NCBI GenBank assembly: GCA_021162935.1
Contig: JAGGXR010000052.1
Coordinates: 56,631 to 120,630, forward strand
DNA length: 64,000 nucleotides
Reading direction: 5' to 3'
DNA from: Deltaproteobacteria bacterium
GTDB lineage: Bacteria; Myxococcota_A; Polyangia; HGW-17; SLPX01
Under the pieces are notes generated by a model. It was not told the DNA's origin, did no database searches, and saw only the letters and a list, made by a program, of their open reading frames with translations. The position numbers and the translations under genes were made by a program. Positions within the stretch are counted from its first letter, which is position 1. Each line of letters starts with the position of its first letter. This document shows positions 625 to 58,644 of the stretch, piece after piece.

Positions 625-1764
625 CTACAGGCCCGACCATTTCCGCAGAAACGACTGCATGTGCTCCAACGCGTCGGCTGCCTTTTCGTAATCCACGTTC
701 GTGCGCTTCAACGATGCGGGCCAGGAAACTCCCCGTTTCGACTTCGGCACCTTCACATCGGGTCGCAAAGGCAGATAGGACCCCGTGTCAACGAGCCGAC
801 GCTCCACGTCTTTGGACACAAGACATTCGAGGAGTTTCCGTGCCAGTTTGGCGTGAGGCGCCCCCTTGATCAACACGACAGTCGATGGCATGACCACGGT
901 GCCCATGCCCTGCTGGTCTGGAAACACGACCGCCACGTTGGCACGATCACGGACCGCCTCGGCGGCGTCCTCGGTATCCGTCAGGCCGAAGGCCACCTGG
1001 CCTGCGACCACGAGCCGTTTGACTTCCCCGTTCGATCCAACGATTTTGACGCCGTTGTCCTTGATCCTGTCCATGAAGGTCCGGGTCTTGGCCTCGCCCC
1101 ATATGGAAGCGAGGGCAGCCACGTGCATGGTCGTCGTACCATACAACGGACTGGCCATGGCCACCTTGCCCTTCCATTTTGGATCGACCATGTCCAAAAT
1201 CGACGTGGGCATCTGATCCGCCGGCACCAGTGCTTTGTTGACCAACAGGATCCTGGCCCTGGCCGCAACGCCCGTCCAGGTGCCGTCGCCAGCGCGAAAC
1301 ACACCAGGCAGATCCGACGCCGCTTTGGGTCGATAAGCCACCACGAGCCCCCGCCGCACGAGCAACGCCGACCGCACCGGATCACCAGACCAGAATAGGT
1401 CCGCCTGGGGATGATTCCGCTCCGCGATGAGCCGATTGAGCACCCCGGTACTCTTGGTCTCTTCCGTGTCGTACAGGCCGCGAACCTCAATCCCTGTCTT
1501 CTTCGAGCAGTAGCGGAAAATCGGCTGGGCATCCACCTGATCGACCGAGGTGTAGACCACCACAACCTTGTGCTGGACACAGCCGCGGCACCCAACGTCC
1601 GTTACGGACAGCAAACTCAGCGCGACCATGAGGATTGACAACGAACCAAAGCGCCGCGAGATCCTGCCTCTCAAATCTCCCACGCATGACGTCCCGCCAC
1701 GTGGAAATCCTGTCCATCGTCGTGCCTGTCGATTCATGAAGCAATGCCTCCAATTCTGTTCCAT
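625..1764 (-). CDS. Fe3+ ABC transporter periplasmic substrate-binding protein (FbpA/AfuA family)
   Basis: 379-aa ORF with a signal-like segment (MVALSLLSV...) and a solute-binding family 1 fold typical of iron(III) binding proteins (…LVVAGQVAFGLTDTEDAAEA…, …GSNGEVKRLVVAG…). A permease gene follows. The true start may be an internal Met. Confidence 0.75.
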   Translation of the reverse strand: MEQNWRHCFMNRQARRWTGFPRGGTSCVGDLRGRISRRFGSLSILMVALSLLSVTDVGCRGCVQHKVVVVYTSVDQVDAQPIFRYCSKKTGIEVRGLYDTEETKSTGVLNRLIAERNHPQADLFWSGDPVRSALLVRRGLVVAYRPKAASDLPGVFRAGDGTWTGVAARARILLVNKALVPADQMPTSILDMVDPKWKGKVAMASPLYGTTTMHVAALASIWGEAKTRTFMDRIKDNGVKIVGSNGEVKRLVVAGQVAFGLTDTEDAAEAVRDRANVAVVFPDQQGMGTVVMPSTVVLIKGAPHAKLARKLLECLVSKDVERRLVDTGSYLPLRPDVKVPKSKRGVSWPASLKRTNVDYEKAADALEHMQSFLRKWSGL

Positions 1765-2250: not shown

Positions 2251-4167
2251 GTGGAGGGACAAGGCGCGCGAGGGTCCATGGGACTGCAGCACATCAAAAT
2301 GCAGATTCTCGAAATGGGGCTGCTCATCCTCGCGGCGTACTCAGGGGGTAAGCTCGCCCAAAAACTGAAGATTGGCGAGGTCGTGGGCCAAATCCTCGGT
2401 GGCGTGATCGTGGGCCCACACTTTCTCGAACTGATCCACAAGATCCTCGTGCATTACGACTGGCTCCAACGCTACGTGGTGTTCAGGCCAATCTATCACT
2501 TCTATGACACGCAGTTTCCCGAATACGCCCGAGTGCTGGAAGGCTATCATTTCTTCGTATTCCTGTTCCTGGGCATCATCGCCTTCTCCATCGGCGAAGA
2601 ACTCCACCGAGATCGTCTCAGACAGGTGGGAATCGCGGCCACGATGATCTGCGTCCTGCAGGCTCTCCTCACGTTTCTCCTCGGCTTTCTCGGATTTTGG
2701 CTCATCTTCAGGTTCTCGGTCATCAATGCGCTGCTCATGGGCGCCATCGGCATCGCCACAGCCCCAGCCCTCACGTTCGTCCTCATGAACAAATTGAAGG
2801 TCGAAGGACAGCTCAAAAGCATTTTGGCAAACATCGTGGTCCTCGATGACATCATCGAGGTCGTTTTCTTCTCGGTCATCCTCGGCATCGCCCTGGCGCT
2901 CCAGCGCGGAGGCAGCATCTCCTCCACGCATCTCGCCATCGAAGTCATCAAAGAACTCCTCTTCGCAGCGGGAATCGGCGCTCTCATCTTCTTGCTCCTC
3001 AAGGTCTTCATCCGAAAGAAAATGCCCACGGAAGATGAAGTCGCAGCCGAGCCCAATTTTCTCTCCATGGTCATGTCGGAACACCCGACTCCGTCGCTCG
3101 AAATCCTCGTCGTGATCACGGGCATCGTGGCCGTCGGCCTCGCCGTCGCCATCGAATTCAATCTCCCTTTCCTCATCACAGCCGTGGTCGCCGGCTTCCT
3201 GGTTTCGAATTTCCATTCCCATGCCCTGTTCGATTCCCTGAAAATCGAAAACGTGATGCCTCTGTTCAACCTGATGTTCTTTGCGATCATCGGTTCGAGC
3301 GTCCGGGTGGAAAGCCTATCGAGCGGCGTGCTCGTCTACGTCATTGGCTACTTGGTTTTCCGGACCGTTGGAAAGCTGGTGGGAAACTGGGCCGGATGTC
3401 GACTGACGGCCCAGGACCCGAAGATCACGGCCTGCCTGCCGAAACTCATGCTGCCTCAGGCCGGCATGGCGGCTGTGGAAACCATTCTCGTGGCAACGGT
3501 CCTGAAACAATCGGGCGGGATGAAGCTTTTCAATACCATCATTCCCGCCCTGGTCGTGTTCGAACTCGTGGGGGCCTGGTTGTCGGAAAAGACCCTCCTG
3601 AAATGGAAGAGCTGGACCGTTGGCGAACGCGAAGCGCTCGACGCGCCCCACGTTGCGGGAAGCGGATTCTCTCTCCACGAACTGATCGGACAACGGATCT
3701 GCAGATTGATGGCACAGACCAGGGATGATGCCATCTTTGAACTCGGAACATTTTGCGTCAGCCAACGAATCATCCCTGAGGTCGGTATTCTAACCAACCC
3801 GGTACGGGAACGGGAAAAGCTCGCATCCACGGCCATTGGTGACGGCATCGCCCTGCCCCACTTCCGAACGGGCCTGCTCAAGCGAACCGTCGTCGTATGC
3901 GGCCTATTGCAGCATCCCGTGGACTGGAATGCGCCGGACCACCAGCCGGTGGATCTGGTTTTTCTCCTCATCAGCCCGGAACAATACCCCGAAGAGCACC
4001 TGGAAGCGATCCGCGCCATCGGTCTGGCCTTGCGGAAGCCCGACTTCCGAGACGGCCTGACACAGGCCGTCGCAGACGGCACGACCGCAGCCTATCTCAA
4101 GAGTTTCACGGAAGCGAAAAAAGACGCCCCAACCGCCGACTTCACGGGGCAAACTGCTCAAACGTGA
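2251..4167 (+). CDS. Cation:proton antiporter (CPA / Na+-H+ exchanger family) fused to a C-terminal PTS EIIA type-2 (EIIA-Ntr/PtsN-like) domain
   Basis: The N-terminal ~400 aa are multi-TM with a Na_H_exchanger-like pattern (GEVVGQILGGVIVGP, …LANIVVLDDIIEVV…). The C-terminal ~150 aa carry the EIIA-2 signature around the phosphorylatable His (…STAIGDGIALPHFRTGLLKRTVVVCGLLQHPVDW…DLVFLLISPEQ…HLEAIRAIGLAL). Start is uncertain: GTG 2251, ATG 2278 or ATG 2299. Confidence 0.75.
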   Translation: MEGQGARGSMGLQHIKMQILEMGLLILAAYSGGKLAQKLKIGEVVGQILGGVIVGPHFLELIHKILVHYDWLQRYVVFRPIYHFYDTQFPEYARVLEGYHFFVFLFLGIIAFSIGEELHRDRLRQVGIAATMICVLQALLTFLLGFLGFWLIFRFSVINALLMGAIGIATAPALTFVLMNKLKVEGQLKSILANIVVLDDIIEVVFFSVILGIALALQRGGSISSTHLAIEVIKELLFAAGIGALIFLLLKVFIRKKMPTEDEVAAEPNFLSMVMSEHPTPSLEILVVITGIVAVGLAVAIEFNLPFLITAVVAGFLVSNFHSHALFDSLKIENVMPLFNLMFFAIIGSSVRVESLSSGVLVYVIGYLVFRTVGKLVGNWAGCRLTAQDPKITACLPKLMLPQAGMAAVETILVATVLKQSGGMKLFNTIIPALVVFELVGAWLSEKTLLKWKSWTVGEREALDAPHVAGSGFSLHELIGQRICRLMAQTRDDAIFELGTFCVSQRIIPEVGILTNPVREREKLASTAIGDGIALPHFRTGLLKRTVVVCGLLQHPVDWNAPDHQPVDLVFLLISPEQYPEEHLEAIRAIGLALRKPDFRDGLTQAVADGTTAAYLKSFTEAKKDAPTADFTGQTAQT

Positions 4168-4244: not shown

Positions 4245-5249
4245 TCAGTGCCTGACCGGCGAGCGGGGCCTCGATGCCCCTCTCGCACCGGAGCGTACGC
4301 CGGAACGCGCCGCTGACCGCGCAGCAGGCCTCGCTCCTCCTCGCGCCGTTGACCGCGCAGCAGGCATCGCTCCTCCTCGCGCCCCTGCCTGTGCCGCAGA
4401 CAGTGATCCACTCGGTGCCGTCTTCGCATCGACAGGTGACGCCATAAAATGGTCGAAGTTGGTCCTCGCATCCGACTTGGTCCACAGTCCGACTTTGCCC
4501 GGCGCCATGAAGGTCTTGTCGAACAGGTCGAGGAGCTTCTTTCCGTCCAGATAGCACTGGATGTGAGCACCGGTCATCACGGCGCGGACCTGATGCCACC
4601 CCTTGTGGGGTCGCTTCGTCCTGGCCGATCCCAACATCGTACGCACACCGCCCTTCACGTGGTAGACGCGAAAGTTGTCTTCGAGTGGATTGTAGCGCAC
4701 CACATAATAATTCTTGCCGTCCTTGGCTCGCCAGGCAACACCACCGCCCTGATCGATCCGCCCCTTGACCGTCTTGAGCTTCACGGACAGGTCCACGTCG
4801 CCCGTCACTGGGCTGGTCGAAAGCACCACGTTGTATCGGCTGTCCGGTCCAACCCCCTGCTGCGCCAACACCTTGGGCCCCGACGGAGCCGTCCGATCCG
4901 CCACCACGGCCCACTTCCCAGAGGTCACCAGGAACCCCTTGGGCAAAGCACCCAGGGCCGCCTTCTCGAAATCCCAGGTCACCGGAGCCGTCAACCCCGG
5001 CTCAGCCGCCGCTGTCCCGCCCGCCGTTGGCACCTTCTTTGGCATTCGCGGCAGATTCGGTTTCGGACTCGACATCCCGGCCGGCCGCGCCGACGTCTTC
5101 GCCTGCTTGCTCGCCCCGGACTTTTCGACCCTACTCTTGTGGCCACAGCCGGTCCCGGCAAACACCATGCCTGCCACGCTGAACAGAACCGCAACCTCCT
5201 TCATTGCACCGATCCCCACCTCTGTTGCCTGTCTGAATCGTCTCGTCAT
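4245..5249 (-). CDS. Secreted/lipoprotein with DUF1080-like (3-keto-disaccharide hydrolase / concanavalin-type jelly-roll) domain and an Ala/Arg-rich C-terminal tail
   Basis: Signal-like N-terminus MTRRFRQATEVGIGAMKEVAVLFSVAGMVFAGTGC (alternative start 5204). The central domain matches the DUF1080 pattern (…GDVDLSVKLKTVKG…GGGVAWRAKDGKNYYVVRYNP…GWHQVRAVMTGAHIQCYLDGKKLLDLFD…GKVGLWTKSDARTNFDHF). The C-terminal ~65 aa A/R/G-rich tail is encoded by a 36-bp tandem repeat. Confidence 0.5.
   Translation of the reverse strand: MTRRFRQATEVGIGAMKEVAVLFSVAGMVFAGTGCGHKSRVEKSGASKQAKTSARPAGMSSPKPNLPRMPKKVPTAGGTAAAEPGLTAPVTWDFEKAALGALPKGFLVTSGKWAVVADRTAPSGPKVLAQQGVGPDSRYNVVLSTSPVTGDVDLSVKLKTVKGRIDQGGGVAWRAKDGKNYYVVRYNPLEDNFRVYHVKGGVRTMLGSARTKRPHKGWHQVRAVMTGAHIQCYLDGKKLLDLFDKTFMAPGKVGLWTKSDARTNFDHFMASPVDAKTAPSGSLSAAQAGARGGAMPAARSTARGGARPAARSAARSGVRSGARGASRPRSPVRH
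4308..4390. repeat. 36-bp tandem repeat (~2.2 copies) inside the 3' end of the 4245-5249 gene
   Basis: cgccgctgaccgcgcagcaggcctcgctcctcctcg (4308-4343) is followed by cgccgttgaccgcgcagcaggcatcgctcctcctcg (4344-4379) and a partial third copy. On the minus strand it encodes the repeated …ARGGA(M/R)PAARS(T/A)… peptide. Confidence 0.85.
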
Positions 5250-5874
5250 GATCGTTTCTCCCTCGGCCGACTGGCCAGGCCCTCTCGTCCCTGCCGACGA
5301 GCCTTCGAAACAATGGACCACCCGATACCAACTGCGCCCCGCACGCATCGTCCCTATTTGTATGTCGGTTCGGCGGATGGTGGAAGCAGAATTTCTTCAG
5401 ACGAACGCCATGCTACTCCGTCCGGACCCGAGCAAGGACACACAACTTCTGTTTTCGAGGGATCCGAACATTCGTTCACCGACAACGGGTACCGATACTT
5501 CGCCGTGGTCACCAACATGGACGGCGACGGCACCCAGATTATCCGCTGGCATTGGGCCAAACACGGCAGCACCGAAAACGGCCACGAAGTCGCAAAAAAT
5601 CAACTTGGCGCCGCCGTGCTGCCACGAGCAGATTCTGTTTACCCGATTACCCGACAACCCGACGATTGAGGGCCAATACCGGTCTTGCGAACCATCTCTT
5701 GGTGATCTAGTCTTCGGCTCGTCTTCGACTCGGTCATTGGCATCGATCTCGGCCAAAAGACCGATAGGAAGACCTCGTCGGAAACGGACAGGCCAACGCG
5801 GCAAAAAAGCCACTGCAACGCCACGCGGACATGCAACAGCACACTCAGAAAACGCAGAAAATGGTGAACCTACA

Positions 5875-8751: not shown

Positions 8752-9621
8752 CTACATGGGCTCCTGAAAGGTGCCGGTCCCAGACGACGTCTGACCTTCC
8801 ATTCCAGCCGATTCGGTGACCTGACGTTTGAGATTCCTCAGCCGAATGGCCAAAATCGTCACCAAGAACCCTAGAATCAACAGCCCAACCAGGGCGGCAA
8901 TCGCCACAACCTTGAGGGTTTGGCCAGAAGACTCCACGGGAGTCGCTTCGATCTTGCTGGCTGCAGTTCCCTGCTGGACGAGGACGCTCACGTTCTTGGA
9001 ATCCAGTCCGGCCACCGATCCTGCTACCAAGGACTGAATGGCTGCAAGCGACGCGGGCGTCTTACCCGCCTCCACCTTGAGATACACCGACGCCTTGGGT
9101 TGTGGCTTGGGCGCCTCGGGGTCGGCAAGGGGCGAACGCCGCGGCACCACGAGGTGCACGCGGGCATCGAGAACCCCGTCCATCCGCTTGAGGGTCTTGG
9201 ACAACTCACCCGACATGGCATAGACCATCTTGATGTGTTCTTCGGTCGAGGTGGGCACGAGGCCCGAACCACCGAACACCTCGCCGACGCCCTTGTCCTT
9301 GGGTCTGGGAAGATTCTCGATCAGGAGCACATCAAAGGCCTTGGACGCCTGCTTCACCGGCACGGTGATGGTGAACGCCGGTTTGCGGCCTTTTTCCTTG
9401 ACCTTGGTCGCCTCGATCCCCGCCTTGCGCAGCTTGAACACGATCAGATTCGCCTGTCGCTCGTCCAGGCCATGTTGGATCTCCGTGCCGCCGCAACCGG
9501 CAAACACACCGATGCCGGCAACCATGACCCAAAACGCCAGCCCAATGGGCAGCCAACGATGGAACTTTACGGTCCCAGCAGCGAACAGGCCACGATCGGC
9601 CCCGGACTCGGCAGCAATCAT
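8752..9621 (-). CDS. sctJ: Type III secretion inner-membrane ring lipoprotein, SctJ (YscJ/EscJ/PrgK family)
   Basis: Lipoprotein signal with lipobox (…GIGVFAGC). The mature N-terminus GGTEIQHGLDERQANLIVFKLRKAGIEA… and the second domain …DVLLIENLPRPK…EEHIKMVYAMSGELSKTLKRMDGVLDARVHLVVP align by eye with EscJ/PrgK. A C-terminal TM helix is present (VVAIAALVGLLILGFLVTILAI). Length ~290 aa, so SctJ rather than FliF. The track ORF (500 aa, 8752-10254) carries a spurious upstream extension. Confidence 0.75.
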   Translation of the reverse strand: MIAAESGADRGLFAAGTVKFHRWLPIGLAFWVMVAGIGVFAGCGGTEIQHGLDERQANLIVFKLRKAGIEATKVKEKGRKPAFTITVPVKQASKAFDVLLIENLPRPKDKGVGEVFGGSGLVPTSTEEHIKMVYAMSGELSKTLKRMDGVLDARVHLVVPRRSPLADPEAPKPQPKASVYLKVEAGKTPASLAAIQSLVAGSVAGLDSKNVSVLVQQGTAASKIEATPVESSGQTLKVVAIAALVGLLILGFLVTILAIRLRNLKRQVTESAGMEGQTSSGTGTFQEPM

Positions 9622-9821
9622 CACGACCCTTCTCCTGTCTTGCGCCCTCTTGTCTTGCGCCCTCTCCTGCCACAACGCACCCAAGGCCGATTTCTTAGCG
9701 AAAGACCGCACCCCTGGCAAGGACAATAGATGAATCCAACAGATATACCGGTCGTCCGGCTGGCTACCCGCCAACCGGACGGCCGACTGCCGACACGGGT
9801 CTCCCGGCCGTCGTTCGGTCG

Positions 9822-10247
9822 CTACATCCTGGTCTGGAGCAACTGGCGCACGGCCTGATTCGCCCGGTCGATGCTCTTCGAAAACAGGTCCATCTGCTGG
9901 GTGTACCGATACACGCTTACCTGGAGAGAAATCACCTGGTTGATGTCCAACGATCCCCGCATGGCCCGCCTGATATAGTGGTCCAGCTTGCGTTCGTCCT
10001 TCATCAAGCCTTCGACCTGCCTGCGAAGCAGGCCTGGTCCCTCCGGCTTGTCTGGCTTCGTTGCTCTCTGGGCGGCCTCTGGCCCGGTCGGGCCTTGCTG
10101 GGACACGACGCGACCGAACTCGGACTGGGCGCCGCCCTGCTCCGGCCTGATGGGGCCAACGAACCCAGGGCCATCGCCCATGGGCCCTCCTATCCTTTTC
10201 TTGGCTGCCACGTTTCCTGCGCCGCCTTGCACAGCACCAATTTTCAT
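9822..10247 (-). CDS. T3SS inner-rod/needle family protein (SctI-like; SctF not excluded)
   Basis: 141 aa with a Gly/Pro-rich N-terminus and a C-terminal segment …INQVISLQVSVYRYTQQMDLFSKSIDRANQAVRQLLQTRM that resembles the conserved C-terminal helix of SctI/SctF proteins. It sits immediately upstream of sctJ, the canonical sctI-sctJ order. GGAGGTG Shine-Dalgarno 6 nt before the ATG. Confidence 0.4.
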   Translation of the reverse strand: MKIGAVQGGAGNVAAKKRIGGPMGDGPGFVGPIRPEQGGAQSEFGRVVSQQGPTGPEAAQRATKPDKPEGPGLLRRQVEGLMKDERKLDHYIRRAMRGSLDINQVISLQVSVYRYTQQMDLFSKSIDRANQAVRQLLQTRM

Positions 10248-10502
10248 GAAACACCTCCGCGTCCTTGAAGAACGACCCCAGGCAACAAACCCGCTCCAGG
10301 CCGTTCTCTTTTCAGTTCACGCCCCCGATTGTCGACACGACAACCAAGGTTGTTGCGAAAAATCTGGTGGGAGAGTGAACGCTTCGGAAAAAAACGCGTT
10401 TTCTGGAAAAAACGATGCGAGGCGTGGAAATTCGCTCAGGGCGGGAAGGCCTTTCCACATCACAAAGATTGGAACGGATCCCGCGGCTGGCCGAAGGCCA
10501 CG

Positions 10503-11189
10503 TCACGAGGTGTTGACGACCTCCTGAAGCATCTTGATGGCACGGCCGTGGAGCCTACTCGCCCAGGACCGACTCAGCCCCATCTCCTTCCCCGCCTCGG
10601 CCAACGACTTATCCTTGAAATAGGACAACTCGATGATGCTGCGCTCCGACTCGGGCAGCGACTCGACCGCACGACGGACCACGTCGAACAATTCCACGTC
10701 TTCGACCTGGTCATAAACGGATCCAACGGACGCATCGGCGCTCTGTTCCACCGTCTCGGCCGCAAAGGCCAAGACCTCCATGGTCGCCAGGTTCGCCACC
10801 CGGTCTGCAAAGTTGGACAATGCATCTTCAAGGGCTCCGCCTGGTTGTCCGCCCTGGCCCTCTGATTCCAGGTATGAATCCACCCGTTCCTCACGCTGGA
10901 CCTTGTGCACCCTGGTCCGCGCCAGCACGCCCATGGATCGCAATCCGTCAAAAATCGCCCCGCGAATCCGATAGTACGCAAACGTGGAAAATGCGATGCC
11001 GCGCCGTGGATCATAGCGTTGAGCGGCAACCACGAGTCCTTGGTTGGCCAGGGCGACGGCCTCGTCGGTCAGGTCCTGATTCAGCCGAAGCATCCTGGCC
11101 GTCTTGATCGCAATCGACTTGGCCAGGCCCATGTGGCCCTCTATCAGGCTGTTTGCTCCTGCCGGAAGTCCTGAATCGACCATCGCCAT
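10503..11189 (-). CDS. Sigma-70 family RNA polymerase sigma factor, FliA/WhiG (sigma-28) type
   Basis: Region 2 (…VVAAQRYDPRRGIAFSTFAYYRIRGAIFDGLRS…) and region 4.2 HTH (…LPESERSIIELSYFKDKSLAEAGKEMGLSRSWASRLHGRAIKMLQ) are present. Length ~228 aa from Met at 11189 (MAMVDSG…). The track ORF begins 33 codons further upstream. Confidence 0.7.
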   Translation of the reverse strand: MAMVDSGLPAGANSLIEGHMGLAKSIAIKTARMLRLNQDLTDEAVALANQGLVVAAQRYDPRRGIAFSTFAYYRIRGAIFDGLRSMGVLARTRVHKVQREERVDSYLESEGQGGQPGGALEDALSNFADRVANLATMEVLAFAAETVEQSADASVGSVYDQVEDVELFDVVRRAVESLPESERSIIELSYFKDKSLAEAGKEMGLSRSWASRLHGRAIKMLQEVVNTS

Positions 11190-11696
11190 CCCCGAAGGTC
11201 CCAAGCCAATGGCTGCACTCTGGCAGCCGGTGGTCACGCACCACAGAGAACTACAATTGCTGTTGTGACCGAAGGGTACCGTTTCCAACTGTCCTGGTCA
11301 AGTTGAGGTCCACCTCGAACTTTCGCCCGGGAATAAGCGGCTCGAATGCCAGCACATTGCCCTCAACAGGAACCCTGACGGCATGCTGATCCGCCGCTCG
11401 TGCCAAAATCTCTGTTTGCTCTGCCCTCCGCACAGAACCAACCCTGCCCATTCATGCATCGGCCAGGGCATCGAAAATCCGGTCGGATTCCCGGGCAACG
11501 GTAGATAGCGGACCGCCACGATCCGATAGGCAGCCAGAACGAGGTCGTTGCGATTCGCCTTGCGCAAGGCAGGGCCGATGACTACATTTGGCATCTCCAA
11601 ACGGAACCGCCTCACAACATGACTGGGCACGGAATAGGTCGTCCAGGCGACACAAACTCGCAGAGGCGATGAAAATTCTCACGGGATGGAGACGAG

Positions 11697-21100: not shown

Positions 21101-21262
21101 CCCTCGCGCAATTCCTGGTGACCGTCTTCCTGCCACGAAGCGGCCATCAATTCTGTCTGTTTCACTTGCATAAGGGCTGTTTTTCCTTCAAAACAGCCTT
21201 CTACTGTGTATGATGACAGGCTAACTTCGTGTGAAACAAACTCTATTTCCAAAAGAGCGTTC

Positions 21263-24200
21263 ATGGAACGGTACGGTCGATTCATCTACAAACATGCCTT
21301 TGGAATCGTGGTTGCATTCCTCGCGATATCCGCGGCGACCATTTGGATTGGAGTCAACCCTGGCTCCGAAGACGACGTCCTGCGTTTTCTGCCCAAATCG
21401 AACCCTCAGGTCGGATTCTTCTATGACGTGAATCAAAAATTCGGCGCCCTCCACGTCGCCATGGTCGGAATCGAAGCCAAGGATGTGTTCACGAAGGAAT
21501 TCATCACGCGCCTCGGACGAACGACCCAATACCTTCAAGACGAAGTCAAAGGTGTCCACCGGGTGCTGAGCCTGACCAGTGTGGCGGACTTCAGCCTCAT
21601 CAAGGGAAAAGAAGGGGGGCTGCAAACCGGCCAACTCATCGACACGCAACACCTCCCCAAAACGCAGGAAGGCTGGAAGGTGCTCCGTACGAGAGTCATG
21701 TCCAAGCGACACATCGTCGGCCAATTCGTCAATCGGTCGGGAACCGCCGCGGTCATCTTGTGCTTCCTGTCGCCCAAGGGCAACGTGAACAACATCGTCC
21801 AACGAGTCAAGAAGGCGGTGCGAAAAAACTTTCCCAGCTCCAAGATCTATTGGGGGGGCACGCCCTTCATATCGTCCTATATTTTCGCCGTGACGGAAAG
21901 GGACCTGCGGCGGCTGACCCCGTGGGCAGTGGCGGTCATCGTGGTCATCACACTCCTCGTCTTCCGGGACCCGGTGGGCGTGCTGCTCGCATTCGTGGCC
22001 ACCATCTTCGGCGGCCTCGTCGCCTTCTCCGCCATGAAGCTCACTGGCGAAAAACTGAACTTGGTCTTGGGGTCCATGCCGGTCATCCTATTCGCCGTGG
22101 GAAGTGCCTACGGCATTCATTATTTGGTGCGCTACTACCACCTTCGCAAGGACCACTCCACCGAGGCAGCCGTGGCAGGAGCCTTCCGCGAAGTCGGCCC
22201 GGCGATCCTGGCGGCTGGACTGACCACCATGGCCGGCTTCCTCTCCTTCCTCGCCATGGACGTGGACCCCATGCGCAAATTTGGCATCTTCACGGCCCTG
22301 GGGATCGGGGCGGCCCTGCTCGCAGCACTTGCCGTGGTGCCCGCCATCCTCGCTTTGACGGGGCGCACCAGGAAGGAAGTCGATGCGGATAGTTGGCTCA
22401 AACACGCCATGGGGTCCGGATCCGCCTGGGCACAACAACACCGATGGCTCGTGATCCTCATCCTCGTAAGCGGTGGCACCGTTGGCTTCTACTATTCCCT
22501 TCGGGTCAAGCTGGCCGTCGAGACATCGTCCTTCTTCACAAAAGGAAGTGAGCCGGACCTGGCCGACCACTTCTTTCACGACCAATTCGGCGGATCCATC
22601 TACACGCAGCTCTACATCAAGGCCGACCTAGACGACCCCACCGTGCTGCGGGAGATTCGACGCATCTCGGAGATCATCGAGAAACAGAAACTGGTGTCCA
22701 CGGTCCAAAGCGTGGCCATTCCATACAGCCTGGTCAACGAGGCCATGGTGGAGCTGCACCGCATCCCGGACCAACGCAAGCAGGTGCAGACCCTGGCCTC
22801 CTACGTGCTGTCGGATCCCTCGTCGCGGCAGCTCATGACCATGAACCGTAAGGAAGCCCTCGTGCACATCAAGGTGACCACGAGTGAGGCGGAACGGATC
22901 AACCGCTTCATCGCGACGGTTCGCCGCATTCTGAAGAAGGAAGTCGCTCCGTTCTACGTGGCAGTGAATCTGACGGCATCCACACCCGTCAAAGAGAAGC
23001 GAATTGCGGAAAAGGCGCTGGCAGCGCAGACAACAGACCATCTGTTGGCCATCTTGTTGCGATCGGGCGTGACCCTGCCGGCTGAGGCAAGGACGAACCT
23101 GGCCCGAAACCTCAATCGTGCGCTCGCACAGGGCCGCTTCCATGCGACGAAGGCCGATGTCGAGACCGTGGCCAACAAAGTGCGCCGCTATCTCCGGTCG
23201 AAGGAGTGCGTGCTCGCTCTGCCTGCCCCAGGCCCCAAAGGCGATCCGGCCAAGGCCCTGGCGGCTGCCTTGGCGAACCTTGGCCCCGCGGCCAAGGACG
23301 ATGCCAAAGACGATGCAGGCGCCAAGGCCCTGGCGGGCGTGGTGTCCAAGGAGGATGCTTTGACTCTGGTGGCCACAGCGGACCCATACTTGGCGGATGC
23401 ATGGAAACTCCAGGAAAGCAAGAGCCTGGTCCATGCGGCCCTCCAATCCGTGGGCCTGACCCGGTCACGAATCTCCAAAACCGTGCAGAAACAGATCCGC
23501 GTGGCCCTGCTCGATCTCAAAGTACGCCGGGTCGCCGTTCCTGGATCGGTGGCGACCAAGGCCGGCATCATCGGCGAAAAAATTCCCATGCACGTGGTCC
23601 TGACGGGCATGCCTGTCCTCTACCAGGGCATGTCGAAATCGGTCCAGGCAAACCAGATCAAGAGCCTGATCATCTCAGGCATCCTGGTGCTCCTCGTGAT
23701 CGGGCTCGTCTTTCGGTCGGTACGAGCTGCCCTGGTGGGCATCCTGCCCGCAGGCATGACCCTCATGATGCTCTTCGGCTTCATGGGCTTCAAAGGTCTG
23801 TATCTGGATATGAGCACCTCGATGATTGCCTCCATCGCCCTAGGGACCGGCATCGACTATGCCATCCATTATCTCGTCTGGTGGAGGCGACATGCGAGGG
23901 CATCAGCAGGGAAACCGGTTGCCGCGGCCCTCCAGGACGCTTCGGTGGGCGCATCCCATGAGGCCGGCACCGCCATCCTGGCAAACGCGTTGATGGTGGC
24001 GGCTGCTTTCCTCATGCTCACCATGGGAGACGCAGCCCCGCTCAAGACTTTTGGGGCGATGACCGCCACCGCCATGCTCGGAGCGGCCGTTGCCACGTTC
24101 CTGGCCGTACCGGCCCTGGCAGGAAGCGATCTGATCCGTCACTGGGCATGGGTGGGACTCGATCGAAAAACAATATCCGGACATGACGACCACGGAAACG

Positions 24201-24316
24201 GACGCATCGCCTCGGACGACGGGCCTGCGTCGAAAAACGAGTCAAGCAACGAACGACACCGAGACGCCGGTGCTGCAGACCGCAGCACCGATGTGACAAA
24301 GGAGACGGAGTCATGA
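21263..24316 (+). CDS. MMPL / RND-superfamily exporter (two 6-TM bundles with large periplasmic domains)
   Basis: ~1017 aa from MERYGRFIYKHAFGIVVAFLAISA…. Two sterol-sensing/MMPL-type TM bundles (…AVAVIVVITLLVF…LAFVATIFGGLVAF… and …IISGILVLLVIGLVF…MTLMMLFGFMGF…) separated by a ~300-aa soluble region. Confidence 0.8.
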   Translation: MERYGRFIYKHAFGIVVAFLAISAATIWIGVNPGSEDDVLRFLPKSNPQVGFFYDVNQKFGALHVAMVGIEAKDVFTKEFITRLGRTTQYLQDEVKGVHRVLSLTSVADFSLIKGKEGGLQTGQLIDTQHLPKTQEGWKVLRTRVMSKRHIVGQFVNRSGTAAVILCFLSPKGNVNNIVQRVKKAVRKNFPSSKIYWGGTPFISSYIFAVTERDLRRLTPWAVAVIVVITLLVFRDPVGVLLAFVATIFGGLVAFSAMKLTGEKLNLVLGSMPVILFAVGSAYGIHYLVRYYHLRKDHSTEAAVAGAFREVGPAILAAGLTTMAGFLSFLAMDVDPMRKFGIFTALGIGAALLAALAVVPAILALTGRTRKEVDADSWLKHAMGSGSAWAQQHRWLVILILVSGGTVGFYYSLRVKLAVETSSFFTKGSEPDLADHFFHDQFGGSIYTQLYIKADLDDPTVLREIRRISEIIEKQKLVSTVQSVAIPYSLVNEAMVELHRIPDQRKQVQTLASYVLSDPSSRQLMTMNRKEALVHIKVTTSEAERINRFIATVRRILKKEVAPFYVAVNLTASTPVKEKRIAEKALAAQTTDHLLAILLRSGVTLPAEARTNLARNLNRALAQGRFHATKADVETVANKVRRYLRSKECVLALPAPGPKGDPAKALAAALANLGPAAKDDAKDDAGAKALAGVVSKEDALTLVATADPYLADAWKLQESKSLVHAALQSVGLTRSRISKTVQKQIRVALLDLKVRRVAVPGSVATKAGIIGEKIPMHVVLTGMPVLYQGMSKSVQANQIKSLIISGILVLLVIGLVFRSVRAALVGILPAGMTLMMLFGFMGFKGLYLDMSTSMIASIALGTGIDYAIHYLVWWRRHARASAGKPVAAALQDASVGASHEAGTAILANALMVAAAFLMLTMGDAAPLKTFGAMTATAMLGAAVATFLAVPALAGSDLIRHWAWVGLDRKTISGHDDHGNGRIASDDGPASKNESSNERHRDAGAADRSTDVTKETES

Positions 24317-25080
24317 GAAATTCACCGTTCACCATCAAGGCCGGCCTGACCGTGGGTTTGCTGGCCATGCTGCTGGCAGCTGCTCCGGCCAAAGCGAACC
24401 CCCAGGGGGAAAAGGTCATCCGACTCGTGGAGCAGGCCTTTTTGTCCTACAAGGACCAGTTCGGCAAATACAAGTATTTGATCAAAAACCGAGGCGGCGA
24501 CAAGATCATCAAGTTCACCCTATACAACAAGGGAACGAAGCGGCTCATCAAATTCACATACCCAGGAGACGTCCGAGGCCAGATGGTACTCATGCAGAGC
24601 AAGGACGAGATGTACATCTACCTGCCCGCCTATCGCCGAGTGCGCCGGCTCGCGGGCCACGTCCGCAACCAGGGATTCATGGGTTCCGACTTAAGCCTCG
24701 ACGACATGAGCATTGGGAGCTGGTCGAAGGACTACACCACGACCCTGGTCAAGCAGGACGCAAAGTACTGGTATCTCTCCCTGAAAAAGAAGGCGGGCCG
24801 CAACCCTCCCTATCCCAGACTCAAGATGCGGGTCCTCAAGAAGATCCACGAAGCCGACAAAATTGAATACATGAGCCGGTCGGGCCGAGCCCTGCGAACC
24901 CAGACCTTGACGGGTTGGTACTGCCAGGGCAACAGCATCATGTGTGCCGCCAAGACCATTTTGATGATCGACCATCGCCGGGGCAACCACAAGACCTACC
25001 TCTACGAGGTGGAGAGCCGCTTCAACGTGGGTATCTCGAACCGCAAATTCACGATTCGCTACCTCATGCGAGGCGGCTGA
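24313..25080 (+). CDS. Outer-membrane lipoprotein-sorting (LolA-like) protein, partner of the MMPL transporter
   Basis: Signal peptide MRNSPFTIKAGLTVGLLAMLLAAAPAKA. Size and pattern (…FLSYKDQFGKYKYLIKNRGGDKIIKFTLYNKG…MVLMQSKDEMYIYLP…) match LolA-like proteins that commonly follow MMPL genes. Start overlaps the MMPL stop (ATGA). Confidence 0.6.
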   Translation: MRNSPFTIKAGLTVGLLAMLLAAAPAKANPQGEKVIRLVEQAFLSYKDQFGKYKYLIKNRGGDKIIKFTLYNKGTKRLIKFTYPGDVRGQMVLMQSKDEMYIYLPAYRRVRRLAGHVRNQGFMGSDLSLDDMSIGSWSKDYTTTLVKQDAKYWYLSLKKKAGRNPPYPRLKMRVLKKIHEADKIEYMSRSGRALRTQTLTGWYCQGNSIMCAAKTILMIDHRRGNHKTYLYEVESRFNVGISNRKFTIRYLMRGG

Positions 25081-25231
25081 TTTCGAGAATGGATGAACCA
25101 ACGACCCGGACCATGGCGGTCGAGTTCCCGATGGAATCACGAACATCGCGAAACCATCTGCCAAGGACAAGGGCGAACAAGGGTCCCATAACTCTGCCAT
25201 AATCCCCAAACCAACCAGGGAAGGTTCTGCC

Positions 25232-27037
25232 ATGAAATGCAGCACGACAATGTGGACGGCGATCCTGATCGCCTCAATGGCATGGGCGAAAACCGCACAA
25301 GCGCAGATTGAAAAGTCCTGGACCGTGTCCATTCAGTCGGACGTGCGCTACGTGGTGCAGGAAAAGTCCACCAAGGAACTGATTCCAGCCGCCGACTTCG
25401 TGAAATATCCCTATCTGGCAGGCCACAAATATCGCAAGCTCATCTTGGTGCCCACGGGATTTTCGCGAAACGAAAACATCCTACACGTCCGTCTGAGCGC
25501 CGAGACCGACAAACTCAAAGGAGTAGCCGAAGTGGACTTCGTCTGGCTCGGCTACAGCCGGGAAGCGCAGGTCCTCCAAGACCTGACCAAACGGGAAAAG
25601 CTCCTGCCGTTCCGGCTGGAATCGAACGCCCTGTATCTCGACGTGAACGGCTTCATCTTCAAAAACCTCGACCTCCGCATCGGCCAACAGGTCATCTCGT
25701 GGGGCACGGCGGACCAGTTCAACCCGACCTCCAACCTGAACCCGCTCGATCTGGAAGACCCACTCTTGTTCGGCGAACATATGGGCGTCCCGGCGATCCG
25801 CATGGACTACGCCGTCTCGGACGACTGGACGGCGACCCTGGCCTGGGTGCCAATCTTCTTTCCTGACAACCTCCCTGCCACCGCGCCCATCGGTCTGGCC
25901 TCGCCCGACCGAATCCCAGTTCTGGACCAGAAGATGCGGTGGCAGTTCGCCGTGGATCGAGGGCTGGGCGAACTCTTGGCGAACGGTCCCACCAGGGTCA
26001 CCGAGGCCAACCTGGAAAAACCGCCCATGAACATCGGCAACTCCCAGGTGGGATTCCGCATCCGGGGCAAAATCTTCGAGCAGGACATCTCGCTCTCCTA
26101 TTACTACGGTCGTAGCGGCATGCCCCAACCGTCGGTGTCACGCGCCTTCTTCAGGCAAGATGCGAACTACATCGACACCAGGGTCAACCTCATGTATCCA
26201 CGGATGCACGTCGCGGGCCTATCTATGGCCGGCCAAATCCCATGGGCCAAGGCATTGATGAAGAAGAACCCAAAGCTCAAACCCGTGGGCTGGTGGTTCG
26301 AGGCCGCTGCCTTCTTCCCCCAAAAAATCACCATGGGAATCTACCAAAACGACTTCCCTATCGTGGGCACGGGTGAATACGATTATGAAGGCGACGGCGT
26401 CCAGGGAGGCAACCGTCCGACCATCGTGGACACCACGCCATTTTTGAAGTGGACCCTTGGATTCGACTACTCCTTTTCGAACCATTGGTACGCCAATGTC
26501 CAATGGGTCCACGGCTTCCCCGACGAATTCGGTGCAGGCGGATGGCTCTCCAACCTGTGGAGCAAACAGAAGGGCATGGTTGTGGGCAAGTCGTATCTCG
26601 ACTTCGACTACAACGACGACGGCCACAACGACACGGACATCCTGAGTTGCTATGGCTCGGGCCAGCAGGGCCGATGCGTCCACGAAATCGTTCGCCCGAG
26701 ACTCGGCGACTACATCGTGGGCGGCGTGGACTTCAAGTTCAAGAATCAGTCCATGCTCATGCGCCTCTTCTTCATCTTGGACATGAGCGGCTCCTACGAA
26801 CAGTACTGGAAGGGCTCTGCCGACGGCTCCACCGGGAAGCGTGTCAGCGTCTGGCATAACCCCTTTAGTGCCAAAGGCTTTTCCGCCATCATCTACCCAC
26901 AATTTACCTGGGCCGTCGCCGAAGGCGCCGAACTCTCCATCGGCGGTTTCCTCGCTTTGGGCAAGAGCTACAGCCGATTCGGTGACCCTGCCGTGGGCAG
27001 TTCGATGGTCTGGACACGAGGCAAGTTCACGTTCTGA
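25232..27037 (+). CDS. Putative outer-membrane beta-barrel protein (DUF1302-like) in the MMPL/LolA-like cluster
   Basis: Signal peptide MKCSTTMWTAILIASMAWAKTAQA. 601 aa with alternating amphipathic segments, rich in aromatic/Gly residues. Same strand as, and immediately downstream of, the MMPL and LolA-like genes. Confidence 0.45.
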   Translation: MKCSTTMWTAILIASMAWAKTAQAQIEKSWTVSIQSDVRYVVQEKSTKELIPAADFVKYPYLAGHKYRKLILVPTGFSRNENILHVRLSAETDKLKGVAEVDFVWLGYSREAQVLQDLTKREKLLPFRLESNALYLDVNGFIFKNLDLRIGQQVISWGTADQFNPTSNLNPLDLEDPLLFGEHMGVPAIRMDYAVSDDWTATLAWVPIFFPDNLPATAPIGLASPDRIPVLDQKMRWQFAVDRGLGELLANGPTRVTEANLEKPPMNIGNSQVGFRIRGKIFEQDISLSYYYGRSGMPQPSVSRAFFRQDANYIDTRVNLMYPRMHVAGLSMAGQIPWAKALMKKNPKLKPVGWWFEAAAFFPQKITMGIYQNDFPIVGTGEYDYEGDGVQGGNRPTIVDTTPFLKWTLGFDYSFSNHWYANVQWVHGFPDEFGAGGWLSNLWSKQKGMVVGKSYLDFDYNDDGHNDTDILSCYGSGQQGRCVHEIVRPRLGDYIVGGVDFKFKNQSMLMRLFFILDMSGSYEQYWKGSADGSTGKRVSVWHNPFSAKGFSAIIYPQFTWAVAEGAELSIGGFLALGKSYSRFGDPAVGSSMVWTRGKFTF

Positions 27038-38126: not shown

Positions 38127-38341
38127 GTCCCACGCTCTCCTGACATTCTGGGCATATCATAAATACATCGATCCGGGAACGGATTCCATGAAATGTCGCA
38201 AAGGCGACCTGCTCCGCCTGTTTTCGAAGACTTGGTTCTGAGCCCGCTTGGGGTATACTGCAGGACAAATCATCATTGCCGTCAGACCTCCTGGGACAGC
38301 ATCGGAGCACGAGACTGACGGACAACCAGCAGGAACCGACC

Positions 38342-40348
38342 ATGAACCATGGCAGATCCACGGCAGGTCGCCGGGCCCGATTGACCAACTGGCTGCTTGC
38401 CACATCGAAGCCGTGGCTCATGCGCAGCCCAGCCATCGTGCTCACCTCCGTGCTCGCTGCCTGTTGGAGCCACAAGCCGCTGTACGAAAGCACAAAAGCG
38501 CACCCGACGACGCCAGCATCCAAGGAGATGCACAAACAAATCCGTCCGGTCCAAATCGTCATGCCTTTGCCCCCCGTCACCCTCTGCGGCGTCCTACCCC
38601 GTCCGGTCCAATTCGCCCTGCCGTTGGCCCCATGGTTCCATGGCCGTCGTTCCACGATCATGGCCAAAGCCCTGGCGAATTTTCAACGACTGGGAGGAAG
38701 GCGTCTGCTGAGACCTGCGTCGCACGCGCCATCGGCCCACACGAAACCTCCCACTGCTTTGCCGACAGACAGGCGCTTCATGCAAGCCGCCGAGGTTCTG
38801 ACTTGGGTCCTGCTCAACCACGCTAGAATCGATGCCCCGCTGCCCGGAGATGCCCTTCGATCTGGTCTCTTGAAGGTGCTCGAACGCGTCGCCCTTAGGC
38901 CTCGATCGCCGGCCTCCATGACCGGCGCCATGGCGGAACTGGCCGATCGAATGGGCGACCAGGTCACAGCAACACATCTGTATCGAATCTACCTCGAAAA
39001 GACCAACGTCCCGGCCAGACCGTCCCAGAAGGGACGTCGGTCGCCGTACTCATGGCACGGAAACCGGGTCCCGCAAAAAGGCCACCTGACGAAGAGCCAA
39101 CGCAGGGCACGAGACATCGAGCAGGGTCGAACCGTCGCACGTTTGTGGCTCGCCCAGTACTTTTTGGCCCACGGTCGTACGGCCGATGCACAGGCATTAC
39201 TGAAAACGACGCAGGCCGCGCTCTCTCCAAGAACGACGCCCAGTCGCACGGACCTCATCACGAAAGTCCTCATGGCCTGGACCACCCTGTCGTCCGACCG
39301 ATTCGTCCGAGCGCTCCATCAGATGTGGCGCGTCTATCGTCTTCAGGCAAAACATCCCGGACTGCTCGACGAAAACGACCGCCTGGCGCTTCTTCAATCC
39401 ATGGTCGTGGCCTACTCGTTGTCGGCACGGGCGGATCGTGCACGTGCCTTTTTTCAGAAAACGCTGCGGTCTGCGGACCAACCTCTCCTTGGACGGCTCC
39501 TGTGGTCCCTGCTGGAACGGTATGAGCAGCGGGGGTGCTTCGACCGGGTGATCCAACTCGGAGACCTGACCAAACTCCCGCCGGCAAAAAGAATCGGAAT
39601 CAATCCAGATCATATCCTCTTGGCGCGAGCGGAGGCATTTCTCAACCTGGCCCGCTGGCCAGACGCAATCACGTCCATCGGTCGACTCACCAACAAGTCC
39701 ATGAAATCGGCGCAACGGCTCATCTGGAGTTGGGCCGTCCTCCTCCACCAGACATTCGTCGGCAGCCTCGCGTTGCCCCAGGCCAAGGCTGCCGATGACC
39801 TGTACCGTATCTACCAACAGACTTCCGGTCTCTCCCAGAAGGAGCAGGATCGAGTTCTCAAGTATCGAGCCGCACTGACGCTCTTCAGGAAACAGGTTCG
39901 GCTAGCAGCAGCGTCGCATGAACGTCAGCCGGCCCCTCGCCCCCAAGGGGCGCTGCCGAAGAGGACCGTCGAAGCAATGCTGACCGCACGGCTCCTGCAG
40001 GCCGCCCACTGCCACGCAGTTTGGAAAAGATCTCACGCGGACGGCCCCATCTCGCTCTTGGTGGAAATGGGCATCGACCCGACCGGAACGGTCATCAGGA
40101 GCCGGATCACGGAGAAGTCCGGTCCGAATCATGCCACAAGGGCCTGCAGCCCGGAGCATACGTCCCTGTGTCATTGCATCCAGCGACGCATCCTAGGATG
40201 GCGATTTCCCTCCTATCGAGCCGCAAATGGTTCCTTGATCGTACGGATCCCTCTGCATTTCTGCCGGACCAGGCGACACGACACGAATTCGGATGGCCAA
40301 GGGAATCATCTGCAAACCACATCTCTCCGTCAGGGGAGGATCCCGTGA
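38342..40348 (+). CDS. Hypothetical protein with a C-terminal AgmX/PglI-type (TonB-C-like) domain
   Basis: Long helical, TPR-like middle region. C-terminus …GPISLLVEMGIDPTGTVIRSRITEKSGPNHATRACSPEHTSLCHCIQRRILGWRFPSYRAANGSLIVRIPLHF resembles TonB-C / AgmX-PglI C-terminal domains. Start is uncertain (38276, 38342 or 38420; possible lipobox LAAC). Confidence 0.4.
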   Translation: MNHGRSTAGRRARLTNWLLATSKPWLMRSPAIVLTSVLAACWSHKPLYESTKAHPTTPASKEMHKQIRPVQIVMPLPPVTLCGVLPRPVQFALPLAPWFHGRRSTIMAKALANFQRLGGRRLLRPASHAPSAHTKPPTALPTDRRFMQAAEVLTWVLLNHARIDAPLPGDALRSGLLKVLERVALRPRSPASMTGAMAELADRMGDQVTATHLYRIYLEKTNVPARPSQKGRRSPYSWHGNRVPQKGHLTKSQRRARDIEQGRTVARLWLAQYFLAHGRTADAQALLKTTQAALSPRTTPSRTDLITKVLMAWTTLSSDRFVRALHQMWRVYRLQAKHPGLLDENDRLALLQSMVVAYSLSARADRARAFFQKTLRSADQPLLGRLLWSLLERYEQRGCFDRVIQLGDLTKLPPAKRIGINPDHILLARAEAFLNLARWPDAITSIGRLTNKSMKSAQRLIWSWAVLLHQTFVGSLALPQAKAADDLYRIYQQTSGLSQKEQDRVLKYRAALTLFRKQVRLAAASHERQPAPRPQGALPKRTVEAMLTARLLQAAHCHAVWKRSHADGPISLLVEMGIDPTGTVIRSRITEKSGPNHATRACSPEHTSLCHCIQRRILGWRFPSYRAANGSLIVRIPLHFCRTRRHDTNSDGQGNHLQTTSLRQGRIP

Positions 40349-42072: not shown

Positions 42073-42103
42073 CCATCGGACGAACACGCATACAGGGCCC
42101 TAT

Positions 42104-45069: not shown

Positions 45070-45234
45070 GACCGAAGTGTGAGTCAAGCGGACAGAAGCT
45101 GTCAAGCTTCGAAGGAACCGATGAAGGCGCGCAATCACGGCCTGGACAAAACACCAGTCTGCGACTACAACCCTCAAGGCCTCGCGCCAATGTGATAGGA
45201 AGCAGCAAGGCGAGCAATCGATTTTGTGAGGACC

Positions 45235-48708: not shown

Positions 48709-49617
48709 GTGACCAAACTTACGATGGGAAGCACCCTGTTGTCATCGAACCGGCGAACCGGCTTCTTGCTCTGCGGGCTCATCCTCCTGCTCGGACGGTC
48801 CGTTGCAGCCCACCCAGACCTGGATCGCGCCAAAAATCAGTACATCGCCCAAAACTATGCCAAAGTGATCCAACTCGTACGTCCGCTCGTAGAGCCGAGG
48901 AGCGTGCTGGCCACCGAGGACGAAGAAGCCAAGGCATACGAACTCCTTGGGCTCTCCTACTGGTGGCTCAAGAAATACAAAGCGTCCGAAGCAGCCTTCT
49001 TGGTGCTCCTCAGCATGAGGCCGAGGCACCGTCTCAACCCTGCAATCCACCCGGCCAAACTCATCCGATTCTTCGCTTGGATGCGAAAGAGAATCAAACG
49101 AAAGCCCCTCAAAATCCACCGCCGACAGCTCAAGGAACTGCGGCTCTGCCGCACCAACCTCGGCAAGGCGCACCGACGGCTTGCACGCACCAGAAAGCGT
49201 TGTGTCCACAAGGTCGTGATCAAACGGCACCTCTGGCCGAATTTTTTGCCCTTCGGCATCGGCCAATTCAACAACGGTGACCGGATCAAGGGATGGATCT
49301 TTTTCTCGACCGAACTGGCGCTCCTGCTGGCCAATGCCGGTTCCTACATCATGGCCGAAACGAGTTGGGTCCGAAACGGGCCGAATGGGACCGTTCGCAA
49401 TGACGCGACATCGATCAAGCGGGCCAGAACCGTCCAAATTCTTGAAATCACGACGGGCAGCCTGTTGGCTTCACTGGCCATCGCCGGAATCATCGAGGCG
49501 CTGGTCATGTACAAAGGGACGACGATCCGAACGGAGCCGGTCGAATGGAATACCGGACGGCTCCACCTTTCGATGGAGCCGCACAACCCACTGAAACTCA
49601 CGTGGGATTTTCGCTAA
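48709..49617 (+). CDS. Hypothetical membrane protein (signal peptide, TPR-like segment, two or more TM helices)
   Basis: MTKLTMGSTLLSSNRRTGFLLCGLILLLGRSVAA signal, then …EAKAYELLGLSYWWLKKYKASEAAFLVLL…, then TM helices …WIFFSTELALLLANAGSYIMA… and …GSLLASLAIAGIIEALVMY…. Confidence 0.45.
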   Translation: MTKLTMGSTLLSSNRRTGFLLCGLILLLGRSVAAHPDLDRAKNQYIAQNYAKVIQLVRPLVEPRSVLATEDEEAKAYELLGLSYWWLKKYKASEAAFLVLLSMRPRHRLNPAIHPAKLIRFFAWMRKRIKRKPLKIHRRQLKELRLCRTNLGKAHRRLARTRKRCVHKVVIKRHLWPNFLPFGIGQFNNGDRIKGWIFFSTELALLLANAGSYIMAETSWVRNGPNGTVRNDATSIKRARTVQILEITTGSLLASLAIAGIIEALVMYKGTTIRTEPVEWNTGRLHLSMEPHNPLKLTWDFR

Positions 49618-49628
49618 GGAGGGTACGG

Positions 49629-58472: not shown

Positions 58473-58644
58473 GACACGTTCCATCTCATCGAAATGGCCT
58501 CGCCCGGCACGTCGTTCAACAAAACGCCTTACCGCGACGCTCGTCCTTCACGGACGACACGAGCCCGAAACTCGCTCAGCTTGTACCATCGGTACCGCGA
58601 CCACGCAAGGCCGACAGGCCGGTCCGATTTCCCAAAGCGGTCTG

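Follow-up and report, generated by a model that had tools for sequence, protein, structure and literature searches.

A putative cation/proton antiporter with a C-terminal PtsN-like EIIA domain: a candidate for control in cis by histidine phosphorylation

Does a regulatory domain of the phosphotransferase system (PTS) that has become part of an ion exchanger control the exchanger to which it is attached? The question is raised by one gene on the forward strand of a 64,000-nucleotide stretch of DNA from a Deltaproteobacteria bacterium (contig JAGGXR010000052.1, positions 56,631 to 120,630; the whole stretch is called the window here), whose product joins a membrane domain of the cation/proton antiporter (CPA) type to a C-terminal EIIA type-2 domain. 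The two-domain architecture, the predicted folds and the strict conservation of the ion-binding and phosphotransfer residues (R521, H537 and, for the most part, H583) are established in the analysis that follows. Control of the exchanger in cis would be the natural reading of such a fusion, and we consider it probable, if well short of certain, that the protein is a monovalent cation/proton antiporter of the CPA2 type whose activity is switched in cis through phosphorylation of a histidine in its own PtsN-like EIIA domain.

One gene, two domains

In the list of open reading frames (ORFs), the longest frame at this locus runs uninterrupted on the forward strand from a GTG at 2251 to 4167 and encodes 638 amino acids, whose numbering is used below. 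The true start is likely the ATG at 2278 (Met10, giving 629 amino acids), because P0001, the corresponding NCBI protein, begins there and the homologues have matching N-termini. A Pfam scan of the 638-residue ORF found Na_H_Exchanger (residues 28-408, E 1.8e-31, 109.8 bits, cutoff 26.2) and PTS_EIIA_2 (residues 486-607, E 1.8e-20, 73.9 bits, cutoff 27) and no other domain; RCK_C and CorC are absent. The scan bears out the preliminary description of this DNA, in which a single ORF had been proposed to join a CPA-type exchanger to an EIIA type-2 domain.

The reading that the fusion was produced artificially from two separate genes, by a frameshift, through mis-assembly or in a chimeric contig, has nothing on its side but the general possibility that comes with metagenome-derived sequence, and it can practically be dismissed. 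Four contigs, each from a different metagenome assembly (ENA and JGI), carry the gene and the 380 nt upstream of it in identical form. Hundreds of homologues of 590-640 amino acids carry both domains, some of them on complete chromosomes, and the junction between the domains is conserved in the alignment; the Cloacimonadales chromosomes OY771587.1 and OY762964.1 are two complete ones with the fusion. A frameshift on resequencing had been named beforehand as the outcome that would undo the fusion; none is seen in the four independent contigs or in the more than 100 full-length two-domain homologues. The fusion is real, and an artefact is excluded in practice.

The features of the gene and of its membrane domain are as follows.

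2278..4167, forward strand: CPA-EIIA fusion gene, likely ATG start, 629 amino acids, coordinates including the stop codon
2332..3474, forward strand: Na_H_Exchanger (CPA) membrane domain, residues 28-408, Pfam E 1.8e-31, with a predicted NapA-like fold
2749..2766, forward strand: G167-I-A-T-A-P172, predicted unwound crossover of transmembrane helix (TM) 4, CPA-motif positions 1-4 (A-T-A-P), a break between two short helices in the model
2845..2850, forward strand: D199-D200, Asp-Asp pair on predicted TM-5, CPA-motif positions 6-7, predicted ion/proton binding
3361..3375, forward strand: R371-x-x-G-K375 on predicted TM-10, candidates for CPA-motif position 8, model helix 349-376
3451..3465, forward strand: L401-P-Q-A-G405, second conserved helix break, predicted unwound TM-11 crossover between model helices 381-390 and 396-408
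3505..3663, forward strand: last TM helix running on as a long cytoplasmic helix (residues ~419-464), then a low-confidence linker (residues ~460-471); helix 410-455 and pLDDT below 50 at 451-462 in the numbering of the AlphaFold2 model

An AlphaFold2 model of the fusion protein was built from a 34-sequence alignment (pLDDT 77, pTM 0.62; the numbering of the ORF is that of the model plus 9). In sequence the membrane domain has hardly any similarity to antiporters of solved structure, and with NapA the alignment is limited to the first helix. In structure searches with Foldseek the modelled membrane domain nevertheless placed NapA first (5bz2, E 5e-10, TM-score 0.75 normalised to NapA), followed by PaNhaP, NHA2, SLC9C1, SOS1 and KefC. 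The discontinuous crossing helices of an NhaA/NapA-type fold are present in the prediction, with breaks at GIATAP and LPQAG.

Conservation was counted over the query and 114 aligned full-length homologues (n=115), and the eight-position CPA motif of Masrati et al. 2018 (PMC6181914) served as the standard. GIATAP is nearly invariant (107-115 of 115), as is LPQAG, in which P402 and A404 are found in all 115 sequences and Q403 and G405 in 113. On predicted TM-5, D199 is kept in 105 sequences and D200 in 112, and N194 and E203 are invariant; motif position 5, four residues ahead of the acidic pair, is Ile195 (104/115) and not Glu, which is the pattern of CPA2. Two basic residues on predicted TM-10, R371 and K375, are invariant (115/115 each), and either is a candidate for position 8, where Lys is electrogenic NhaA/NapA-like and Arg would suggest NHA2-like electroneutral exchange (PMC6181914). 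Since the NCBIfam model of the CPA2 family (TIGR00932, 2a37) gives only 38.7 bits against a cutoff of 238.3, the membrane domain would represent a divergent CPA2-like branch. Its likeness to the CPA2 Na+/H+ antiporter NapA of Thermus thermophilus lies in the fold, in the TM-5 Asp-Asp pair at motif positions 6-7 and in the basic residue(s) on TM-10. It differs from NapA in sequence (~20% identity), in its TM-4 motif (A-T-A-P) and in that NapA has no cytoplasmic regulatory domain. As to the transported cation, Na+ would be the default guess from the fold, and K+ or NH4+ is suggested by the linkage of relatives to the ammonium transporter gene amt (see below).

The features of the C-terminal domain are the following.

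3673..4113, forward strand: EIIA type-2 domain with a PtsN-like fold, residues ~475-621 (Pfam core 486-607), supported by Pfam (E 1.8e-20), by sequence and profile matches to PtsN in the PDB and by Foldseek
3811..3816, forward strand: R521-E522, active-site Arg-Glu pair, invariant (115/115 each)
3859..3861, forward strand: His537, predicted phospho-acceptor in G-I-A-L-P-H-F-R, equivalent to PtsN His73, aligned with the His of GVAIPHG in PtsN structures
3913..3915, forward strand: His555 in Q-H-P-V-D-W, not a conserved functional residue (His in 29/115, Glu in the aligned Burkholderia PtsN)
3997..3999, forward strand: His583 in P-E-E-H-L-E, canonical second active-site His, aligned with the His of 'AHLE' in Burkholderia PtsN

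PtsN proteins (4gqx, 3urr, 2a0j and 1a6j) are the best sequence matches of the EIIA domain in the PDB. A profile of the family run against structures scored 71-77 bits with PtsN and 37 bits with mannitol EIIA (EIIA-Mtl), and Foldseek aligned the domain with 3urr (TM-score 0.79, root-mean-square deviation 2.2 A) and 1a6j (TM-score 0.82). PtsN/EIIA-Ntr of E. coli (1a6j), Burkholderia (3urr/4gqx) and Neisseria (2a0j) thus supplies the closest solved relatives, with which the Arg, the phospho-His and the second His are shared. PtsN is a free protein of ~150-165 amino acids, whereas the present domain forms part of a transporter protein. The preliminary description had called the domain EIIA(Ntr)-type, which holds insofar as PtsN is closest by profile and by fold. 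It does not hold at the level of equivalog models: both PtsN models stay far below cutoff (61.1 vs 138.7 and 48.4 vs 221 bits; NCBIfam TIGR01419 / NF008145), and the fructose IIA model scores slightly above PtsN while also failing (72.7 bits, cutoff 103.5). As far as sequence can place it, the domain is of the Fru/Ntr branch and cannot be named PtsN proper.

The active site is conserved throughout the family. H537 was correctly picked out beforehand, in GIALPHF, as the phospho-acceptor; it aligns with the PtsN histidine and is kept in all 115 sequences. P536 and A534 are likewise invariant. In a tblastn comparison (PtsN 57-124 to window 3811-4011) R521 aligns with what we take to be residue 57 of E. 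coli PtsN. The choice of QHPVDW for the second histidine has to be revised: H555 is variable, although the nearby Trp559 is invariant (115/115), and the canonical residue is H583, presumably the counterpart of E. coli PtsN His120, where 93 of the 115 sequences have His and 21 have Tyr. Because R521, E522, A534, P536 and H537 are invariant, which would not be expected of degenerate, non-phosphorylated domains, phosphotransfer has probably been retained.

The closest unfused relatives of the domain are free EIIA proteins of ~135-215 amino acids, many of them named nitrogen-regulatory IIA in their sources. They were obtained in a word-indexed homologue search with the EIIA domain alone, which returned short proteins only and missed the fused ones, and this search was not used for architecture counts. 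A free-standing 140-residue EIIA, P0121 (L060 1639-2061), is 61% identical to the fused domain; its gene lies downstream of one for a beta-helix (NosD-like) protein, with no antiporter adjoining. P0121 may represent the lineage that supplied the fused domain, or it may be a copy that escaped from the fusion. A split, two-gene version of the fusion was sought, and the closest free EIIA proteins, P0121 and P0123, do not adjoin an antiporter.

Relatives and their neighbourhoods

Both domains are found in nearly all of 120 homologues among the matches listed, with shared identity among family members down to 46%. A scan of reference genomes gave 59 loci, in a Myxococcales metagenome-assembled genome, many Cloacimonadota, Delongbacteria, Coatesbacteria, Neomarinimicrobiota, Spirochaetes and Fusobacteria (Ilyobacter, Propionigenium maris and Psychrilyobacter). 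The fusion is widespread in mostly uncultured bacteria of several phyla, not rare as had been implied at the outset, and it is already visible in automated domain annotation (e.g. the JGI name "IIA component (Ntr-type)/NhaP-type Na+/H+ antiporter" given to some homologues). A query spanning the junction found 20 representative clusters at E <= 1e-30 among 1.84 billion. Ten of its longer matches were scanned, and seven consist of Na_H_Exchanger with one or two EIIA domains, three of these being 868-896 amino acids long. Since these longer matches also pair the two domains, several predicted CPA-EIIA families exist.

Variation in architecture goes in both directions. Tandem-EIIA variants of 771 amino acids occur in the family of the window's gene (L026 3416-5731; P0014-P0016), both EIIA domains having the P-H-C-R motif, and P0016 keeps the phospho-His motif in both copies. 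Tandem variants of 868-896 amino acids are found in other CPA-EIIA families (P0178, P0182 and P0192); the P0182 gene is followed by a separate gene for a 155-residue EIIA (L069 3047-3514). In Psychromonas (L054 4176-5540; L055 10001-11362), a homologue of 453-454 amino acids with ~50% identity keeps the NIVVLDDIIE motif and has no EIIA. Because it is nested inside the fused family in the tree, a secondary loss of EIIA is suggested.

The sole recurrent neighbour across related loci is Amt (the ammonium transporter, Pfam E ~1e-117). Of the 48 loci in which at least 1.5 kb of upstream sequence is available, 14 have the amt gene immediately upstream of the fusion gene (L010, L011, L017, L018, L020-L022, L024, L025, L035, L036, L041, L053 and L056). 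The two genes run in the same direction with 25-206 bp between them, or diverge from each other across ~300-400 bp. The linkage occurs in several separate clades and also beside a distant CPA-EIIA paralogue of 735 amino acids. No PII/GlnK homologue lies within 10 kb at any of the 59 genome-scan loci. In the Delongbacteria locus L025 (4058-10730) the order is Amt, 735-residue CPA-EIIA, Amt, 630-residue CPA-EIIA and then an MFS transporter; the 735-residue paralogue is distinct, with IIDDV and GIAMPHAR motifs. The remaining neighbours in the Amt clusters (MFS, Fic, CitMHS, YceG, RuvX and Tle1-like) are unrelated genes and were set aside.

Amt is absent beside the window's gene and beside L001 and L050, which are closest to it, and no flanking gene is common to these three loci. 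A different setting is found on one 10.1-Mb contig, where two CPA-EIIA paralogues each end a duplicated citrate-lyase operon (L067 3958-11854 and L068 3956-11908) in the order citD, citE, citF, citXG, citC, an AbrB-family gene, a 30-bp gap and the fusion. Genes of a TctABC tricarboxylate transporter lie near these operons. With the window gene, L001 and L050 lacking both Amt and shared synteny and other members lying in citrate-lyase operons, the genomic context of the fusion is lineage-specific.

At only two of the related loci, L023 and L034, is an HPr gene that retains the His15 motif found 2-5 kb from the fusion; EI adjoins the fusion region in L034. Where the family occurs in Fusobacteria and Spirochaetes, the HPr or EI genes nearby are of the ordinary kind. 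The nitrogen PTS (EI-Ntr/NPr), to which the preliminary description had tied the fusion, would therefore be one candidate donor among others.

Control in cis and the alternatives to it

Two known systems offer comparison. PtsN in its unphosphorylated form binds to YcgO, a K+/H+ antiporter, and inhibits it in trans (dissociation constant 188 nM); His73 of PtsN packs against the CorC domain of YcgO, and the H73E mutation abolishes binding (PMC11808508; bioRxiv 10.64898/2026.08.14.744764). Like the fusion protein, the E. coli YcgO (CvrA)/PtsN pair combines a CPA-superfamily antiporter with a PtsN-type EIIA, and in YcgO/PtsN the face bearing the phospho-acceptor His is the switch. YcgO, however, is a CPA1 antiporter with cytosolic RCK and CorC domains and is bound at CorC by a separate PtsN, whereas the fusion protein is CPA2-like (Asp-Asp, no Glu at position 5) and carries its EIIA covalently; the YcgO-type set of a CPA1 membrane domain, RCK_C and CorC is not found in it. 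The second system is LacS of Streptococcus thermophilus, a secondary transporter with a C-terminal EIIA-Glc-like domain that is phosphorylated by HPr (PMC10710835). Transport by LacS is modulated in cis by HPr. LacS differs in the type of its EIIA (Glc, not the Fru/Mtl/Ntr type 2), in its transporter family (GPH, not CPA) and in its substrate, a sugar (lactose).

On the analogy of PtsN and YcgO, control in cis could operate as follows. HPr or NPr, charged from phosphoenolpyruvate (PEP) by EI or EI-Ntr, would phosphorylate His537. The unphosphorylated His537 face would dock on the cytoplasmic surface of the transporter or on the partner protomer and restrain the elevator-type movement, and phosphorylation would release the restraint; the opposite polarity of the switch is also possible. 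Cation/H+ exchange would then track PEP:pyruvate status and, where EI-Ntr is the donor, nitrogen status as well.

Several points weigh against this proposal. The proposed docking of the EIIA domain is drawn by analogy, and the docking site is not directly transferable from YcgO, because YcgO is a CPA1 protein and PtsN binds its CorC domain, which is absent here. The residue after the phospho-His is Phe in the window's protein and Cys in 105 of the 115 sequences. The EIIA-less Psychromonas homologues suggest that the transporter can work without the domain. A PTS donor in the window's organism is assumed, because no gene for EI (ptsI), EI-Ntr (ptsP), HPr (ptsH), NPr (ptsO), HprK or free PtsN was found within the 64 kb of the window or in the 8 kb that adjoin it on the left. 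The search combined tblastn, first with probes of E. coli and B. subtilis and afterwards with the EI and HPr sequences of L034 and L023, and a Pfam scan of the window's 30 largest ORFs and of the same 8 kb. The gene ptsN is usually encoded beside rpoN or ptsO; among those 30 ORFs Pfam listed no sigma-54 (RpoN) domain. Finally, the full-text literature searched contained no published description of a CPA-EIIA fusion and no experimental work on any member of the family, one possibly relevant paper (Barabote & Saier 2005) lying outside that search.

That no donor gene is visible in the window would also fit an EIIA-like domain that is never phosphorylated and whose role in the cytoplasm is structural or lies in dimerisation or in the sensing of a ligand. 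The band 3/SLC4 anion exchangers of eukaryotes have an EIIA-like cytoplasmic domain of this non-phosphorylated kind. The failed equivalog cutoffs for PtsN and FruA-IIA and the Tyr that replaces the second active-site His in 21 sequences point the same way. Against these stand the invariant or near-invariant His537, Arg521, Glu522 and G-x-A-x-P-H-x-R, maintained across several phyla at identities as low as those given above, and the retention of the P-H motif in both copies of the tandem-EIIA variants and in the distant 735-residue paralogue, so that we regard a silent domain as very unlikely. It is also conceivable that the EIIA acts as a membrane-tethered regulator of the PtsN type, mainly of other proteins (Amt, K+ uptake), the antiporter being an anchor or a co-regulated partner. 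Free PtsN does act on several partners (TrkA, KdpD and YcgO), and the Amt linkage, in both orientations, in separate clades, beside a distant paralogue and with no GlnK/PII nearby, would suit such a role. The window gene, L001 and L050 have no Amt neighbour, though, some members sit in citrate-lyase operons instead, and intramolecular regulation is the simplest explanation of a covalent fusion; action chiefly on other targets strikes us as unlikely. The Amt loci invite one further proposal, in which the antiporter would exchange K+/NH4+ for H+ beside Amt and the EIIA would signal carbon and nitrogen status through its phospho-His, the receiver being the antiporter, Amt or the two together. Such a PTS-gated ammonium/cation module might replace PII (GlnK) at the GlnK-less loci of Cloacimonadota and Delongbacteria, with the window's copy as a dispersed member, an idea that we put forward as a rather doubtful one.

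PTS-Ntr control of cation homeostasis has so far been documented only in Proteobacteria and only as contacts in trans (TrkA, KdpD, YcgO). A conserved fusion of a PtsN-like domain to an antiporter amounts to "Rosetta-stone" evidence, and it suggests that regulation of antiporters by EIIA is ancient and extends beyond Proteobacteria to Cloacimonadota, Spirochaetes, Fusobacteria and Myxococcota. The fusion also offers a simpler, one-polypeptide system in which to study the gating of an elevator-type transporter by phospho-His, and the adjacency to Amt without GlnK provides a testable link from the PTS to ammonium handling. Nothing is overturned by these observations: domain databases already show the architecture, and regulation in trans and in cis both have precedents.

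Flanks of the gene and other features of the window

The fusion gene looks monocistronic because both flanking genes are on the opposite strand.

625-1764, reverse strand: gene for a solute-binding protein
4245-5348, reverse strand: gene for a secreted 3-keto-disaccharide-hydrolase-like protein

A scan for sigma-70 promoters upstream of the fusion gene found none, and terminator-like matches were disregarded, since they lie inside the fusion ORF. The intergenic region at 1905-1991, ~290 bp upstream of the antiporter start, holds a perfect 34-bp tandem repeat (GATCGTCACCGTCAGTCCGCCGCCACCGGCGCTC, 2.6 copies), whose copy number is the same across four independent assemblies.

Farther along the window, a gene for a YscJ/FliF-family lipoprotein (type III secretion or flagellar ring type; 8752-10254, reverse strand) lies near a gene for a sigma-70-family factor (10503-11288, reverse strand). 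The longest ORF there includes a long Arg-rich N-terminal extension that is probably untranslated, the called gene encoding 289 amino acids. A cluster at 21206-27037 on the forward strand encodes an MMPL/RND-type transporter (1036 amino acids), a LolA-like protein and a DUF1302 outer-membrane protein, and looks like a lipid or lipoprotein export module. Large ORFs of 435-826 amino acids with no Pfam match, some overlapping on opposite strands, are found at 38276-42116, 43213-45906, 58471-61087 and 62076-63965. Near them are genes for a multihaem cytochrome c7-like protein (42104-43774, reverse strand), a Ser/Thr kinase (46675-48510) and an FHA-GAF-sigma54 activator (49545-51437).

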